A program made the position numbers and the translations under genes. A DNA stretch of 62,933 nucleotides, counting the filler, from Rhabdomonas costata (lineage: Eukaryota): assembly GCA_019059605.1 (NCBI GenBank). It is 38 parts of 38 records of this genome, joined end to end, with 100 filler letters (N's around TTAATTAATTAA, not from the genome) between each part and the next. Parts side by side here need not be neighbours in the genome. Positions count along the whole stretch, not along the records: positions 13,281 to 14,841 come from JAHMHO010013059.1; 37 more parts are not named here. One strand, given 5' to 3'. This document shows positions 13,016-27,300 of the stretch, piece by piece. How positions within the stretch are numbered: the stretch's first letter is position 1; every line of letters begins with the position of its first letter. The notes beneath the pieces are model-generated. The model saw only the letters and a program-made list of their open reading frames with translations. It searched no databases and was not told where the DNA came from.

Positions 13016-13282
13016 GTATTGGTCGCTTCAATTCCTACTCGCCACTCTTTCCCCTCGGTCCCCCTCCCCCCTTCCATGAACAGAAGACAAATAAAAATTG
13101 GCAAAGGAGAAGCCAGCTCGCCAATCAAATACAGAAAGGGATTTCGTTTTCTTTACGATTCCGAAAAGCAACCAAAAAAANNNNNNNNNNNNNNNNNNNN
13201 NNNNNNNNNNNNNNNNNNNNNNNNTTAATTAATTAANNNNNNNNNNNNNNNNNNNNNNNNNNNNNNNNNNNNNNNNNNNNTG

Positions 13283-13567
13283 GTTGTGCTTCAAGCGTTA
13301 CTGTTGACTTGTGGTGCTTGTCTGGTGTTCGGTCCTATGCACGCTCTAGGGGTTGTGGGTATGTCGCGTCGTGTTCCTGAGTTCTCGGATGTCTAGCTGC
13401 CGTTTGTGTCCCTCGGTTCCTTGGGTTCCTTGTTGTTGTTGTTGCCATCTGCCTTCCTTGTCTTGCGTCTCCTCTCCGGTGCTGCGTTGAGTGTATCGTC
13501 TTCTGTGTCTGCTGTGGGGCCTCTGCGTGAACTTTCGTCTCCTTCCTATCCGGCTTTGCACTCCCAA
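13283..13567 (+). CDS. cox1: Mitochondrial-type cytochrome c oxidase subunit 1, 3' region (TM11 to C-terminal tail), with in-frame TAG at 13394-13396 (mtDNA fragment or NUMT)
   Basis: QALLLTCGACLVFGPMHALGVVGMSRRVPEFSDV*LPFVSLGSLGSLLLLL...PLRELSSPSYPALHSQ aligns to COX1 FFPQHFLGL.GMPRRYSDYPDAY...SS.GS..S...LEW..G.PPP.HTF. Confidence 0.85.
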
Positions 13568-13729
13568 GTTAGCATCCAGGTCTTTGTATTCGTATCCGTA
13601 TCCGTGTGTGTATGTTCTATGGTAGAGTGGGTAGTAGGCTGTGGGGTATCGGTGTACTGTGTGACCGATGGTGGTTCATGCTGTGTGCTCCCTCCCATGG
13701 TTGAGCTGCTACTTGTTGGGGCTCTGGTG

Positions 13730-14079
13730 GTGGAGTTACGAGCGCTGTGGACCCAAGGCCATGGTGTGAGTGTTGGTGCTGTCAGCCTTTGCATTGAGTG
13801 GGTAGTGGTGCTAGGGGACCGGTGGGTGTTGTGGCCGTTGGTGGTACATGGCATCTACTCCATCTTGGTGGCTGCATCTGTTCATGGTGAGTCCGCTGGT
13901 AGTGGTGACGAGGGGTGTTGGTGTACCGGTTGGGCATGTCATTCCTTGATCTACGATCCGTGGGAGGGCTTTACGGTGTGGCTGGAGGGATCGGTGCTTA
14001 CCCTACACTCAACTTCTTGTACATGCCTTGGCTTCCCCTCTCACGTGCGTATCATTCTACTATTGTGTATCTTGTGTAG
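13730..14079 (+). other. Possible highly divergent complex I antiporter-like (ND4/ND2/ND5 family) segment split across two frames
   Basis: ELR...G...VVHGIYSILVAASVHG in one frame and GVLVYRLGMSFLDLRSVGGLY...WLPLSRAYHSTIVYLV in another reproduce ND4 spacing (DLK...HG...GVLYDR...GGL-x20-LP-x11-LV). The AYSS motif and the TM12 Glu are absent. Confidence 0.3.
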
Positions 14080-14941
14080 TCTTGTGCTACAGAGTGTATC
14101 GGTAGTAGGGTGTTGGCATCCTAGCGTAGGGCATGTTGGCATCTCCTCTCCAACCTAGCCGTGTCTTACCCTAGTATTAGAGCGTTGTGTGTCACCGTGA
14201 CTATGTTATGGCGGTGGTGTGGGTCCGGCGTGGAGTGGTGTTGTCGACCTCAGCATGGCATCTGCGTCACAACAGTATCAGCCCATGGTGTGTGTTGCTG
14301 TCATCCTTCTCAGTACCCTATCACATCATGCGTAGTGTACCCTCTATGTTAGGATGGTGTGTGTGTGTGTGTGTCTCCGTTTCCAGGGCCCTGTTGTTGG
14401 TGTCGTGTTGGTGTCAGTCTCAACCATGCTCTCTCAGCCATGCTCACCCTCTTCGTTAACCGTGCTCACTGTTACGCTTTGCTTGTACTTGTGTGTGTTT
14501 CTGTCTCCGAGGGTGTCAAGTGGTACGATGTGTGGATTCAGGGCCTCGTGGTGGTTGGATGTCAGGATGTTGGTAGTGCTTGGTGAGTGCATGATGTGTT
14601 CCTGTGTTTCTTGACGCTTCTGGAGTGGAGGTTGGTGGTTGGATGCTGTTGGTGAAGTGCAGTGGTGAGTTGAGGCGTAGTGGTGAACATTCCTACCAGG
14701 TTTCTAGAGTGTAGGAGTGTAGAAGATGAAGAAGATGAAGATGAAGGCCTTCACCTCTATCGCTGATGCCCTCTACTACGGATGGCTCCACTGCGTGACC
14801 CATCCTTTGTACTTACCCACACAACCACACACGCCCAACACNNNNNNNNNNNNNNNNNNNNNNNNNNNNNNNNNNNNNNNNNNNNTTAATTAATTAANNN
14901 NNNNNNNNNNNNNNNNNNNNNNNNNNNNNNNNNNNNNNNNN

Positions 14942-22231: not shown

Positions 22232-23240
22232 ACCCAGCATGCTCATGCTCAAGCTGGCGCGGGGGGTGCGGTGTGAAGCTGAGCTGTTGCGAAGCTTTGG
22301 GTGGAGGTGGACCCCGGTGGGGTGAATGTCTGTACAGTAACTTCAGGAAATTCGATCGTCTATGTGACGCTGAATGGGCGGGTTGGACTTGGCTTCGGTT
22401 CTCACGTCGATGACTGCGAATCCTGTGCCGACTTCCGTACCGACTTTTGTGCATTTCCGCATCTTCACTTCTTTTCTGTTATATCTTGCTGTTAAATGGT
22501 TCTGGTGGAATCATGCGCCCCCTGAATTTCCGATCAACTGCACCGTAACCCTTCTAAAAAGTACTGCTGAGCCCTCGCTGAGTACCTTGAATGATGTGTG
22601 ACGGGTTCTCTGTCTCCTGGCTTTTTGACGTTTTTTTTTGATTTATTTGTCTGCGAGCTTGCTGGGAGACTGAAGGAGAAAAGAAAGGACTCGAGAGGCG
22701 TCAGAGGGAAGGGAATTAGCTGGAAGGAGTTGCTGTCCAACCGACTTGCGCAAAAGGTGGCAACAAGTCAAAGGAGAGACCTAATCCTTTGGGACAGCGA
22801 ATTGCATACCAAAAATCGCCTTTCGAAACATTCAGCCCAAGTGCTCCCATATGTTGATGTTCAGTAGCATCCTTGAATACAGAAGGGGCAGGAGTTCACG
22901 ATATTTAAGCGGAACAAGGTCACGTCACTGTGGCACATAACTTCTTGCAGTTCCTGTGAGTCCAAATAGGCAGATTTTGCAGGACGAAACAAAGGAAACC
23001 CAAGGTGGATTGTTAAATGTCAACGCTTGAAACAGGAAAGGGCAATAGGAAATAATCTGTGCTGTGCCAGAAGATAGTGCGCTGCGCAGTGGAAGGCTCT
23101 CCTGCTCTTCTCTTGAGCAAACCCGGTGGGAACTTTGTCTNNNNNNNNNNNNNNNNNNNNNNNNNNNNNNNNNNNNNNNNNNNNTTAATTAATTAANNNN
23201 NNNNNNNNNNNNNNNNNNNNNNNNNNNNNNNNNNNNNNNN

Positions 23241-24357
23241 GGTTTGGTTGTTGTGGTATGATCTTGATGCACACCGGGTGGTTGCTCTTGAGGTCCACGC
23301 ATTGCACCGCGCGAGAAAACGCCGCGCTGCCGAGGTACTCGACGATCTGGTACCGCCCCGCAATCACCGCGTTGATTCGAATAGGGTAATCCTTGTGCTC
23401 CTCAAAACCTGTCTTGCCCTTTTCGTATATCACCTTAAGCTCCAGGGCCTCGTAGGAGACCCCCCCGGACGACCGACCTGTGGCCGGAGGGTTCGCACTT
23501 GAGGTGGGCGTAGACGCTGTGACCGGTTTCCCCTCTGAGGGCTTTCCGGAGGCAGAGGAGGAGGATGAAGAGGAGGCTGCATTGGTCTCAGTACCACCAG
23601 AGGATGCTGCTGCTGCAGGGGAGGCTGCGGTCACGTTGCCCCCATTTGTCTTTGAAGAGGACTTGCCAGGGGCAGGATGATCCGCAGTCTTGGAAGCCGT
23701 GGGGGCTGCCTGGCCGCTGCTTCCTTTTGAAGGTGAGCCATCAACAGGGACCCTGGTGTAGCCCACATCATCGGGGTCAGTCCAGGCCAATTCCTTGGCC
23801 GAAGGAGAGCTCTGCAGATCGGACTGAGGGGAGGCAGGAGCGGCGATAGCGCTAACTCCTGGCACGGAAGCGCCGTCCCCAACCTCAGAGTGCTTTGCAC
23901 CTGTAGTGTCTTTCGCACCCTCCTCGGCATTGCCTGTGTTTGGGCTCTGGGCTTCGTCTGGTGGGGCGCCCATGGCCTCCGCATTGTCTGTGCTCGCAAA
24001 CTGTTTCAGCTGCTGCTCCAAGCTGGTCTCAAAGTTGACGACGTCCACATCTACCGAATCGTTGGCCGCGGAATCCTCGGGAGCCTCCAGGGGCGCCGGT
24101 GCCCCTGGCTCCTGTTCAAACGGGTAGGAGAGCTGCCTCGCTGTAGTCGCCGTGGTCGCAGGCTTCGAGGACGACGGCTCAGCTGAGGAGGGGTCGTCAC
24201 AAGAGGAGGGGGCCGTGGGGTTGTCCCCAGGCGGGAGCTCGATGCCGAGAGACTCCAGCTCCTGCAGGAAGACGGACTCCGTGTTCCCCAGGCTGTTCAC
24301 CCGGAGCCAGTCCAGAAATAAGCCCACGGGGTCGTCGCTCTCCTCCAGCGACGCCAT
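23241..24357 (-). CDS. DYRKP: DYRKP-type (plant-like DYRK) CMGC protein kinase, N-terminal 372 aa, truncated by contig end
   Basis: LisH-like N-terminus (LFLDWLRVNSLGNTESVFLQEL), low-complexity linker, then ELKVIYEKGKTGFEEHKDYPIRINAVIAGRYQIVEYLGSAAFSRAVQCVDL...VCIKII with the diagnostic GSAAFS Gly-loop. Confidence 0.9.
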
Positions 24358-27300
24358 GTGCTGCGGGAGGCTGCCTAGAAAGAGCGCCACGGCGGTTCGA
24401 GCGGAGAGAGAGATAAACAAAGGAAGAAAAGTGTCAATTCCAAGACACAAAAAGAAAACCTGCGCACCGAGGAGCCAAAATAAGTACAACGATAAAATCG
24501 ACAGCACAAACACACAGAAAGACAGACACATAGATCAACCGACCCACCGACGGACACAACAAAACAAGATTTGGTGCATCTCCAAGTTGCCAGGCAACAC
24601 GATGCTTGCTTAGGATTCCCCCTTCCTCACCCTGCAGACAAGAAAGCTATATAATGGCAAAACTGACACAGGTTCACAAACAAAAACCAAATTAAGAGAG
24701 CGGGTTCGCATTGTATCACAGAATCCAATACAGGCCGAGCATGACAAAACCCTGAACCCAACGGTGCTGGCCAAACTTGCACCAGGTTAACAACCAAAAN
24801 NNNNNNNNNNNNNNNNNNNNNNNNNNNNNNNNNNNNNNNNNNNTTAATTAATTAANNNNNNNNNNNNNNNNNNNNNNNNNNNNNNNNNNNNNNNNNNNNG
24901 TGTGGGGTTTACGGTTGAGTAGTCCTATGACAGGTACATTGACCTGTCCGCGTTTAGCACAGTTAAACGTTTGCTTGCTGTGTTGTGTGAAGGAAATGCT
25001 GAAGCAGAGATATTCTATTTATAGCATGCGGCTCGAAACTCTGCGGTTTAGCACTGTTTCCTCCTGGAAAGACTACGTGGTAGGTGGGCCCAGAGCTACC
25101 TTACTCTTGGGTGGATATTTTATGACATGATCAGCGTGCTGGCATCCGAGGTAGTGTGTGTGTGTGTGTGCTTGTTCCCGTTTCAACGGCCAAACGGGGA
25201 CTCTGACGGGGAAACGTGCCCCCCCCCCTTTTTTTGAATTATGTCTTTGACACACGCGCTCACCAGGGTGCCCATCTTCCACATCGCGGAGAAAGGGAAT
25301 GAGAAAACATGAATCCTGGCGGATGCCTGTGGCGGACGCTACGTGCAATGGTACTTCCATCGGTCCTTTGTCAGCGCGAACCCCGCCACGGCAGCCTCAA
25401 CGGGAGCACGTGGAGATTGACGACGACGAGCCTGCGGACAAGTACTCTGCCCTTGATCGGTTGCACCGGTAAATGGGAAAAAACGGAAGACTTGCCAGAA
25501 GGTCATGTCGCAACCGTCCCCGGCAGAACAGGGATGCGAAGGAGTGTTTATTGCAGGCTTTGCAAAGAATCGATCCTTCATCTCTGAGGTGCTACGCAGC
25601 GAGCAGTGGCATCAGGTGGCACGGACTGGCCGGAGATATGCACAAGAGTTCACACCGATGTGTCGAATTTTGATTCGTTGACGTTTCGGAGCGGTTTTTA
25701 TCTCCAAGTTTGCTGTGGAAGAGTGATTTCCGGAATAGAGTCATTGCGCCTCGTAACCTTTGGTGGTGGAGCCGGGATGTCATGCCAAGAACATGCTTCT
25801 CAGAGTCTGGAAGTCAATTTTGGAGATGAAGTGCAGGTGAGACAAAAAGTTTGAAGGTTGGTCTGTTCTGCAGCTTTTTAGCCTGCCATCCTGAACTAAG
25901 TGTGACGGCACTTTGTGGATCGTTTATTTGGGGTGAATTGGAACGATTTGTTGACGTGTCGCTTTAGTAGTTTGGATTAACTTCTCCTGTCGTACGCCCT
26001 GTGCGCCGTGTATTTTGGTGTATGTTTCCCCCTCATCGGATTACCAATCGCGGATGCATTCTTGTCCTTGAACTGTTGAACTGCTGTGTGGAACGTTCGG
26101 TTTTCATGTCCTGTCACTTCGTTCCGTGTGCCGTTCCTCGTGCCCCTAACTTCCAGCTCCAAAGATCACTTCCATGTTTCCACCAGGGTGCCCGAGGGGA
26201 GAACCTGAACCTAGGGTGTTTCTTTGCTGGATTTTCTCATCCTGCTCGAGCGTTTGACGGCACACCTCGTTAGAGGATTCGGGCGCCGCACCCCAACGAA
26301 GGACTATGCAGCCCTTAACTTGCGTAAACCCGTTTCTGACGAAACCAACACCCACACCCTCACCAGTTTAGATACCGATTCCGCCCGCCGGGTTCATACC
26401 AATACGGGATGAAAACACAGCTTTGTCAAACACTAAAGGTCCACAGCACAACCCACCCNNNNNNNNNNNNNNNNNNNNNNNNNNNNNNNNNNNNNNNNNN
26501 NNTTAATTAATTAANNNNNNNNNNNNNNNNNNNNNNNNNNNNNNNNNNNNNNNNNNNNCCACCTCGCATTGTTTCGGCTTGTGGAATGTTTTCCTTCCTC
26601 TGGGTTGAGATTGCTTCAATAAACCTCTCTTTTCCTCGTGCTTCATAATGACGCTCCCGCATTGTTCTTGACCTTTCAGATATTCCCGTGACGTGCGTTT
26701 CTTCGTTTACCTGTTGTGAACGCATGCATGGCTTTTCCACCCTCGACGAAGCGTTGTCTTCGTCCGCAAATCTCCGTGTAATATTACTGAAGGTCCGCGT
26801 CTCTGTCTGTGTTTTCGTCTCCTTTGAGCAATCTTGCTTGAAAGGCCTCACAGCGCCTGGTCTCAAGGCATTCAAGGCCTGATGTTGACCCATGATGTTG
26901 ACCCATCTTGGTGAACTTTTGACTTTCAAAGGTGAAATGTAGCCGGTGATTTTCATTGCCGCTCAAGAGAAGGTGTGGAAAGCTCAATGTTAGCTCCATT
27001 TAAAAGGTGTGGAAACCTTAGCACTTATTTGCGCTTCTACAAGAGCTGAGGACACCATGGCAGGAGTGGGAGCGCACGCACTGTACCAAGGAGAAAGGGC
27101 GCGAAAGGACGAATGCCCTTCCTATGTTGTCATTCTTTTCCACTTCTTGGTCAGAAAGAAATTCTTCTTCTGGACAAAACCTTCTCAATGATGGAATTTT
27201 TTTTTAGGAAAAATTGACATCCTCGGGTGCGGGGCGCAAAACTTGCAGTTGGTATTAGAGTTATGCTCATTTGGCGTCACGAATGTCAAATTTACAGCAA

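Follow-up and report, generated by a model that had tools for sequence, protein, structure and literature searches.

The DNA analysed here (the window) is 62,933 bases long and consists of 38 contigs of 1550-1561 bp each, which are split by 37 identical spacers. Since these 100-base spacers join unrelated contigs, features must not be read across them, for example across the artificial spacer at 13181-13280 (N44-TTAATTAATTAA-N44) that separates two unrelated contigs. The contig that follows this spacer, at 13281-14841, is 1561 bp long and of mitochondrial type, its + strand being composed of A 0.139, T 0.333, G 0.307 and C 0.22. Its strand skew, expressed as |GT-AC|, is 0.281, which is the highest of the 38 contigs; the second highest value is 0.119, a 2.4-fold difference. 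The other 37 contigs have an ordinary eukaryotic nuclear look, with about 43-58% GC, CA-type microsatellites and a kinase-like exon. A piece of cox1 lies at the extreme 5' edge of contig 13281-14841, where it is cut by the contig end with no visible biological boundary, and it is followed by a GT-rich flank in which no gene could be recognised (13568-14841). The A-poor and G/T-rich skew continues through the 1.27 kb on the 3' side of cox1 (A 0.155, T 0.32, G 0.313), and the flanks of four of the relatives described below, namely, L005, L006, L010, and L012, are similarly skewed. That an organelle-like skew runs across the whole contig, the cox1 flank included, argues against a scrap of cox1 inserted in nuclear DNA (NUMT). 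Nine ORFs of the flank, read with TAG as Tyr and TGA as Trp, matched no Pfam family at E<=0.1. Rfam gave two matches on this contig, both with E>0.8 and far under the cut-offs, and none for the whole window, in which Aragorn also found no tRNA genes. The repeats in the contig are short families at chance level, and its blastn likeness to the relatives is limited to contig bases 9-200. No other cox1 piece or other mitochondrial gene was found in the window, all matches with E<0.01 falling within contig 13281-14841.

The conserved 3' part of cox1 in this contig comprises 66 codons on the + strand, from TM11 to TM12 (13283-13480; VVLQALLLT...GMSRRVPEFSDV[TAG]LPFVSLGSLGS...LRLLSG). An earlier note on this DNA had pointed to an in-frame TAG in a COX1 frame from TM11 onward and had described the frame as otherwise intact, and our analysis bears out both statements. 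The TAG is at 13394-13396 (+ strand), it is codon 38 of the frame from 13283 and column 445 of our alignment, and it is the only TAG, there being no frameshift and no other stop in 95 codons. We infer below that it is read as tyrosine. Beyond LRLLSG the frame runs into a variable C-terminal tail (13481-13567, + strand) that has no consistent alignment and contains no stop codon. For searches we used a translation of 106 residues with X placed at the TAG. The Pfam COX1 family matched residues 3-36 of it with E 2e-4, which is a weak match, as its 20.7 bits fall short of the family cut-off of 34.8 bits. In phmmer searches of solved structures the chain 8iuf_C1 matched residues 6-56 with E 7.8e-11 in an alignment that crosses the TAG, and the alignments with yeast COX1 extended to residue 64, while tblastn matches to the metagenome relatives extended to residues 65-81. 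Since these alignments cross the TAG, the homology to COX1 is real and continues beyond it. The earlier note had carried this homology about 57 codons past the TAG. About 28 of these codons are firm, up to ...LRLLSG at 13480, but the last 29 or so (13481-13567) are variable and align with nothing convincingly. As it had also noted, there is no TAA up to the contig end: none occurs in the 494 codons of the cox1 frame after GMSRR, where the next TAG comes at 266 codons and the first TGA at 280 codons, and with TAG as Tyr and TGA as a sense codon the frame is open to the contig end.

Codon 38 had further been equated with Tyr447 of bovine COX1. When query residues 7-60 are aligned without gaps to residues 416-469 of 1occ_A, codon 38 does correspond to residue 447, which we take to be Tyr in bovine COX1, but Tyr is not the only residue in this column. 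In the phmmer alignments both Euglena and yeast COX1 have Phe there, and the column is thus aromatic rather than an invariant Tyr. If a one-step nonsense change fell at random in this piece of 95 codons, it would land on the column of codon 38 with p of about 0.06-0.08. Because of this chance a single TAG codon is not decisive, and the caution in the earlier note that one codon cannot separate the alternatives was justified. The evidence within the window is one TAG codon in one gene, and therefore the weight comes from the comparison with relatives, which does decide.

The closest proteins in a large protein collection are full-length COX1s with 51-66% identity, and in these four closest proteins the column of codon 38 holds Tyr in three and Ile in one. 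The best solved match of the window cox1 piece is the COX1 of Euglena gracilis, the chain 8iuf_C1 from a study described as dealing with the E. gracilis respiratory chain, in a comparison set that contains no diplonemid or kinetoplastid COX1. The same chain is the best match of P0002, a full-length relative with 58% identity, which scored 594.6 bits against it and 410.3 bits against the next solved chain. A scan of metagenomes gave 13 related loci (L004-L016) with 51-76% identity. A single tblastn HSP of 468-495 residues covers cox1 without a break in 10 of them, and the other three are partial. The closest relative with full coverage is L009, whose cox1 is in one piece with 479 aligned residues. 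In L012, which is 6.4 kb long, only cox1 was recognised; 10 long ORFs of this locus read with TAG as Tyr and TGA as Trp matched no Pfam families. A scan of viral contigs gave no match to the pattern, and a scan of genome contigs gave only three bacterial CoxA loci (L001-L003) that were not used further. When TAG and TGA were masked for tree building, the window piece grouped with L009 and L010 (support 88/85) within a clade of eight rows (91/92), of which every well-covered row uses TAG; the exact placement of the window piece is tentative, since its row has residues in only 13% of the tree columns. Its identity to L010 is 87% over 61 columns. By these sequence affinities, the relatives of the cox1 piece are of the euglenid type and not of the diplonemid type.

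In-frame TAG is present in the cox1 HSP of eight of the 13 loci, at 1-24 per locus. There is one each in L004 and L010, six in L005, 16 in L009, 17 in L012, 21 each in L006 and L007, and 24 in L015, while L008, L011, L013, L014, and L016 have none. The cox1 DNA of L007 is identical to that of L006 and L007 was treated as a duplicate. As the number of TAGs rises, the sum of TAT and TAC drops, to 12 in L005, four in L009 and L012, and two in L006; the four near-full-length loci that are free of TAG have 19-26 (26 in L008). A codon-aware alignment has 31 columns with at least one TAG and in 25 of these the TAG-free L008 has Tyr. For the count of individual TAG cells we omitted L007, as a duplicate, and also L008, L013, L014, and L016, the four loci without TAG that served as references. 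Against the L008 residue, 83 of the 88 cells stand opposite Tyr, two opposite Leu, and one each opposite Ala, Trp, and Asn, the overall Tyr content of L008 being 5%. With L013, L014, and L016, which are more distant references, 50-51 of 87 cells are opposite Tyr and 19-23 of 87 opposite Phe. Looked at from the other side, 12 columns are Tyr in all four references and TAG occupies 11 of them in L006 and 10 each in L009, L012, and L015. The invariant columns number 11 for His, 11 for Asp, six for Asn, and 18 for Phe, and all TAG users keep NNY codons at them. Trp is invariant at seven columns, and each of these holds TGG in the five TAG-using loci with near-full-length cox1 that were examined. 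Column 445, which is that of the TAG in the window, is also TAG in L006, L007, L009, L010, L012, and L015, a Tyr codon in L004, L005, L008, L013, L014, and L016, and Ile in L011. These codon alignments show that the relatives put TAG systematically in place of TAT and TAC and that they do so in that codon box only. Since TAG replaces Tyr codons and the other NNY boxes and Trp are unchanged, the pattern points to capture of a stop codon by Tyr, and not to A-to-I editing or to a general effect in which purines replace pyrimidines.

Of the other explanations the one that survives best, improbable as we consider it, is that the TAG is a true defect, that is, a nonsense change in a NUMT, a dead mitochondrial fragment, or an amplification or assembly error, and that it therefore says nothing about the code. 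There is only one such codon in the window, where chance alone could have placed it on this column, the gene runs into the contig end on its 5' side and no stop codon follows it, and Euglena mtDNA is reported to carry many non-functional gene fragments (PMC4700960). Because the cox1 piece is incomplete at the contig end and such fragments are known in Euglena mtDNA, the copy in the window may indeed not be the expressed one. However, six relatives share TAG at the very same column, and in them TAG replaces Tyr throughout an intact cox1. Moreover, the 95 codons without a frameshift or a second stop do not look like those of a decaying copy, and the mitochondrial-type skew extends over the whole contig. 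Over the 66 conserved codons the window and L009 have 27 identical codons, 28 that differ only synonymously, and 11 that change the amino acid, and their nucleotide differences are distributed 14/6/33 over the three codon positions. This excess of third-position and synonymous differences indicates that the window copy has been under purifying selection. Thus, on the aligned codons, the TAG is shown to lie in an intact and selectively constrained cox1 frame, at a column where close relatives have TAG or Tyr codons. Even if the copy were a fragment or a NUMT, its TAG would most simply have been inherited from a functional gene in which TAG is Tyr. The shared TAG column, the purifying selection and the contig-wide skew therefore disfavor the option of the earlier note that invoked a NUMT, a nonsense change or an amplification error.

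That RNA editing mends the codon is in our estimation very unlikely, whether by A-to-I editing of UAG to UIG, which would be read as Trp, or by a G-to-pyrimidine change that restores UAY. In principle, DNA comparisons would look the same whether UAG is decoded as such or is systematically edited to UAY, the column accepts aromatic residues, as the Phe of Euglena and yeast indicates, and substitution editing is described in diplonemids, which are the sister group (PMC4889940, PMC5630924). The A-to-I version, which the earlier note had offered as an alternative, is not supported by the codon alignments, which speak against it indirectly: a single TAG cell out of 88 stands opposite Trp in L008, and the invariant Trp columns are TGG without exception in the loci examined. 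The G-to-pyrimidine version has to face the fact that no other family of pyrimidine-ending codons has purine replacements. We know of no precedent for G-to-pyrimidine editing that is restricted to one codon and affects as many as 24 sites in a gene. Furthermore, no editing is reported to have been found in the mitochondria of E. gracilis (PMC4700960), and the same is reported for genes of Rhabdomonas costata that have UAG at Tyr positions (PMC8219788).

Least probable of all, and in our opinion scarcely worth considering, is that the piece is a diplonemid-type cox1 module on its own chromosome that is joined to others by trans-splicing and whose stops are completed post-transcriptionally, because, although a short coding piece with over 1.2 kb of non-coding DNA behind it and the absence of an encoded stop codon would suit it, the 5' limit of the piece is the contig end and not a module boundary, cox1 is in one piece in L009 as in nine other loci, diplonemid cox1 is described as divided into nine or more modules, each set apart on a different chromosome (PMC3035467), and the affinity is to Euglena COX1. 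The diplonemid framing suggested by the earlier note, which would bring with it gene modules, substitution editing and stops that polyadenylation completes, is not supported either, since the nearest solved homologue is that of E. gracilis and the cox1 genes of the relatives are contiguous.

What we consider very probable is that the contig is a piece of euglenid-type mtDNA, made up of the 3' part of cox1 and then non-coding DNA, and that the TAG at 13394-13396 would be an ordinary tyrosine codon. Among the readings given in the earlier note, UAG as Tyr is the one that is strongly supported, both by the TAG/Tyr columns of the relatives and by the published euglenid precedent (PMC8219788). If UAG is Tyr, then the mRNA would keep UAG, as is reported for R. 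costata (PMC8219788), the mitochondrial release factor would not recognise it, and UAG would be decoded by a tRNA-Tyr that comes from the cytosol. Euglena mtDNA is reported to encode no tRNAs (PMC4700960) and, in the absence of such genes, the tRNA that decodes UAG would have to be imported. This tRNA-Tyr could be a dedicated one with a CUA anticodon, one whose anticodon is altered inside the organelle, or the normal tRNA-Tyr reading UAG as a near-cognate codon.

The closest known system is the mitochondrion of the heterotrophic euglenid R. costata, for which Soukal et al. (2021, Sci Rep 11:13070, PMC8219788) proposed that UAG is Tyr and UGA is Trp, and in that report neither RNA editing ('There is no indication of RNA editing') nor introns were seen. 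Our data resemble what is described there in several respects, namely, UAG is at Tyr columns of cox1 (there also of cox2, cob, and nad4), the genes are contiguous and of the euglenid type, and the mitochondrial pieces come as short contigs from a draft assembly that is very fragmented and has about 51% GC. They differ from it in that UGA is Trp there (PMC8219788), whereas the TGAs of the relatives that we fetched are never at Trp and mostly at Cys, and the cox1 piece in the window has no in-frame TGA. UAG is also Tyr in the mitochondria of the calcareous sponge Clathrina clathrus (Lavrov et al. 2013) and of some Labyrinthulea (Zihala et al. 2020), both as cited in PMC8219788. These are unrelated lineages in which the same mitochondrial change of UAG from stop to Tyr has taken place. 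In Clathrina, UAG as Tyr is joined with CGN as Gly, and the mitochondrion has tRNA genes of its own. It differs in the latter from Euglena, the mtDNA of which is reported to have none (PMC4700960). Diplonemids, in which A-to-I, C-to-U, and U-appendage editing are described (PMC7049700, PMC4889940), are similar in being euglenozoan mitochondria with short coding pieces amid non-coding DNA, but their genes are systematically fragmented and they use code table 4 (PMC7049700), unlike the relatives of the window, whose genes are contiguous and whose TAG pattern fits Tyr and not Trp. A working analogy for the decoding is found in trypanosomatid mitochondria, where an imported tRNA-Trp is described as being edited to read UGA (PMC8677022), although this involves another codon and another amino acid.

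The end of translation also separates the relatives that use TAG from those that do not. The TAG-free relatives stop at the expected C-terminus, which, counted in codons from GMSRR, is a TAA at +50 in L013, a TGA at +59 in L014, a TGA at +63 in L008, and a TAG at +88 in L016. In the TAG-using relatives the first TAA after GMSRR comes at +130 in L015, +196 in L004, +221 in L012, and +340 in L005, and TAA is absent from all the codons that could be read after this motif in L006 (110), in L010 (396) and, as given above, in the window. Either the stop is made in the TAG users by 3' processing, or their messages have no stop, or TAG is read according to context. The use of TGA to end cox1 in L008 and L014, and the fact that no locus puts TGA at a Trp column, sit oddly with TGA being Trp in all known euglenozoan mitochondria, as PMC8130358 describes them.

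In the fetched loci most in-frame TGAs are at Cys columns. The cox1 of L015 (L015:1-1404) has 10 in-frame TGAs, which include every one of the six columns where the four TAG-free references agree on Cys; beside them it has two TGT and no TGC. L012 has a single in-frame TGA, at codon 413 of the cox1 match, which is also at a Cys column. The codon usage of L015 suggests that UGA is Cys in the euglenid-type mitochondrion of this lineage. Selenocysteine was considered for the TGAs of L015 and was rejected because TGA is nearly the only Cys codon in this gene. To our knowledge, no mitochondrial code has UGA as Cys and this assignment is known only from the nuclear code of Euplotes. Among the titles in the literature on mitochondrial UGA as Cys none reports such an assignment, which does not establish that it is absent from print. 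The third codon positions of L015:1-1404 are 57% A and 2% C, the reverse of what is seen in the A-poor relatives, where A makes up 2-15%. Since L015 has such A-rich third positions and yet has no TAA in the gene and uses TAG for Tyr 24 times, it serves as a natural control, which indicates that TAA stays a stop.

That UAG is Tyr in euglenid mitochondria has already been published for R. costata (PMC8219788), and so the in-frame TAG, which is most likely read as Tyr, is a real observation but not a new one. Its practical consequence is for annotation: the standard tables, table 4 included, truncate COX1 at the TAG and hence the mitochondrial contigs of this organism need to be translated with TAG as Tyr. 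What the environmental contigs add to the published case is that they spread the variant over a whole clade, with 0-24 TAGs per cox1, that the TAG users have no TAA stop nearby, and that in one lineage TGA seems to stand for Cys. The clade is thus a natural series in which the reassignment of stop codons can be studied in an organelle that imports all its tRNAs. We can offer only as a speculation, and one that may well not hold, that a widespread and mostly uncultured clade of euglenids, to which the organism of the window would belong, is in the midst of stop-codon capture by the amino acid with which the stop shares its codon box, with UAG as Tyr (0-24 per cox1), UGA as Cys in L015 and perhaps in L012, and the cox1 messages of TAG users, that of the window among them, having no encoded stop near the end of the protein. 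If this is the case, one mechanism could cover all three, namely, the loss of recognition by the release factor together with near-cognate reading by imported tRNA-Tyr(GUA) and tRNA-Cys(GCA).

A minor observation concerns the nuclear part of the window. An open frame of 449 codons at 23185-24534 on the - strand reaches the contig edge, is rich in Ser, Ala, and Pro, and ends with a motif that resembles the N-lobe of protein kinases (…YQIVEYLGSAAFSRAVQCVDL…VCIKII). Judged by eye, this frame is probably an exon of a nuclear DYRK-like kinase.
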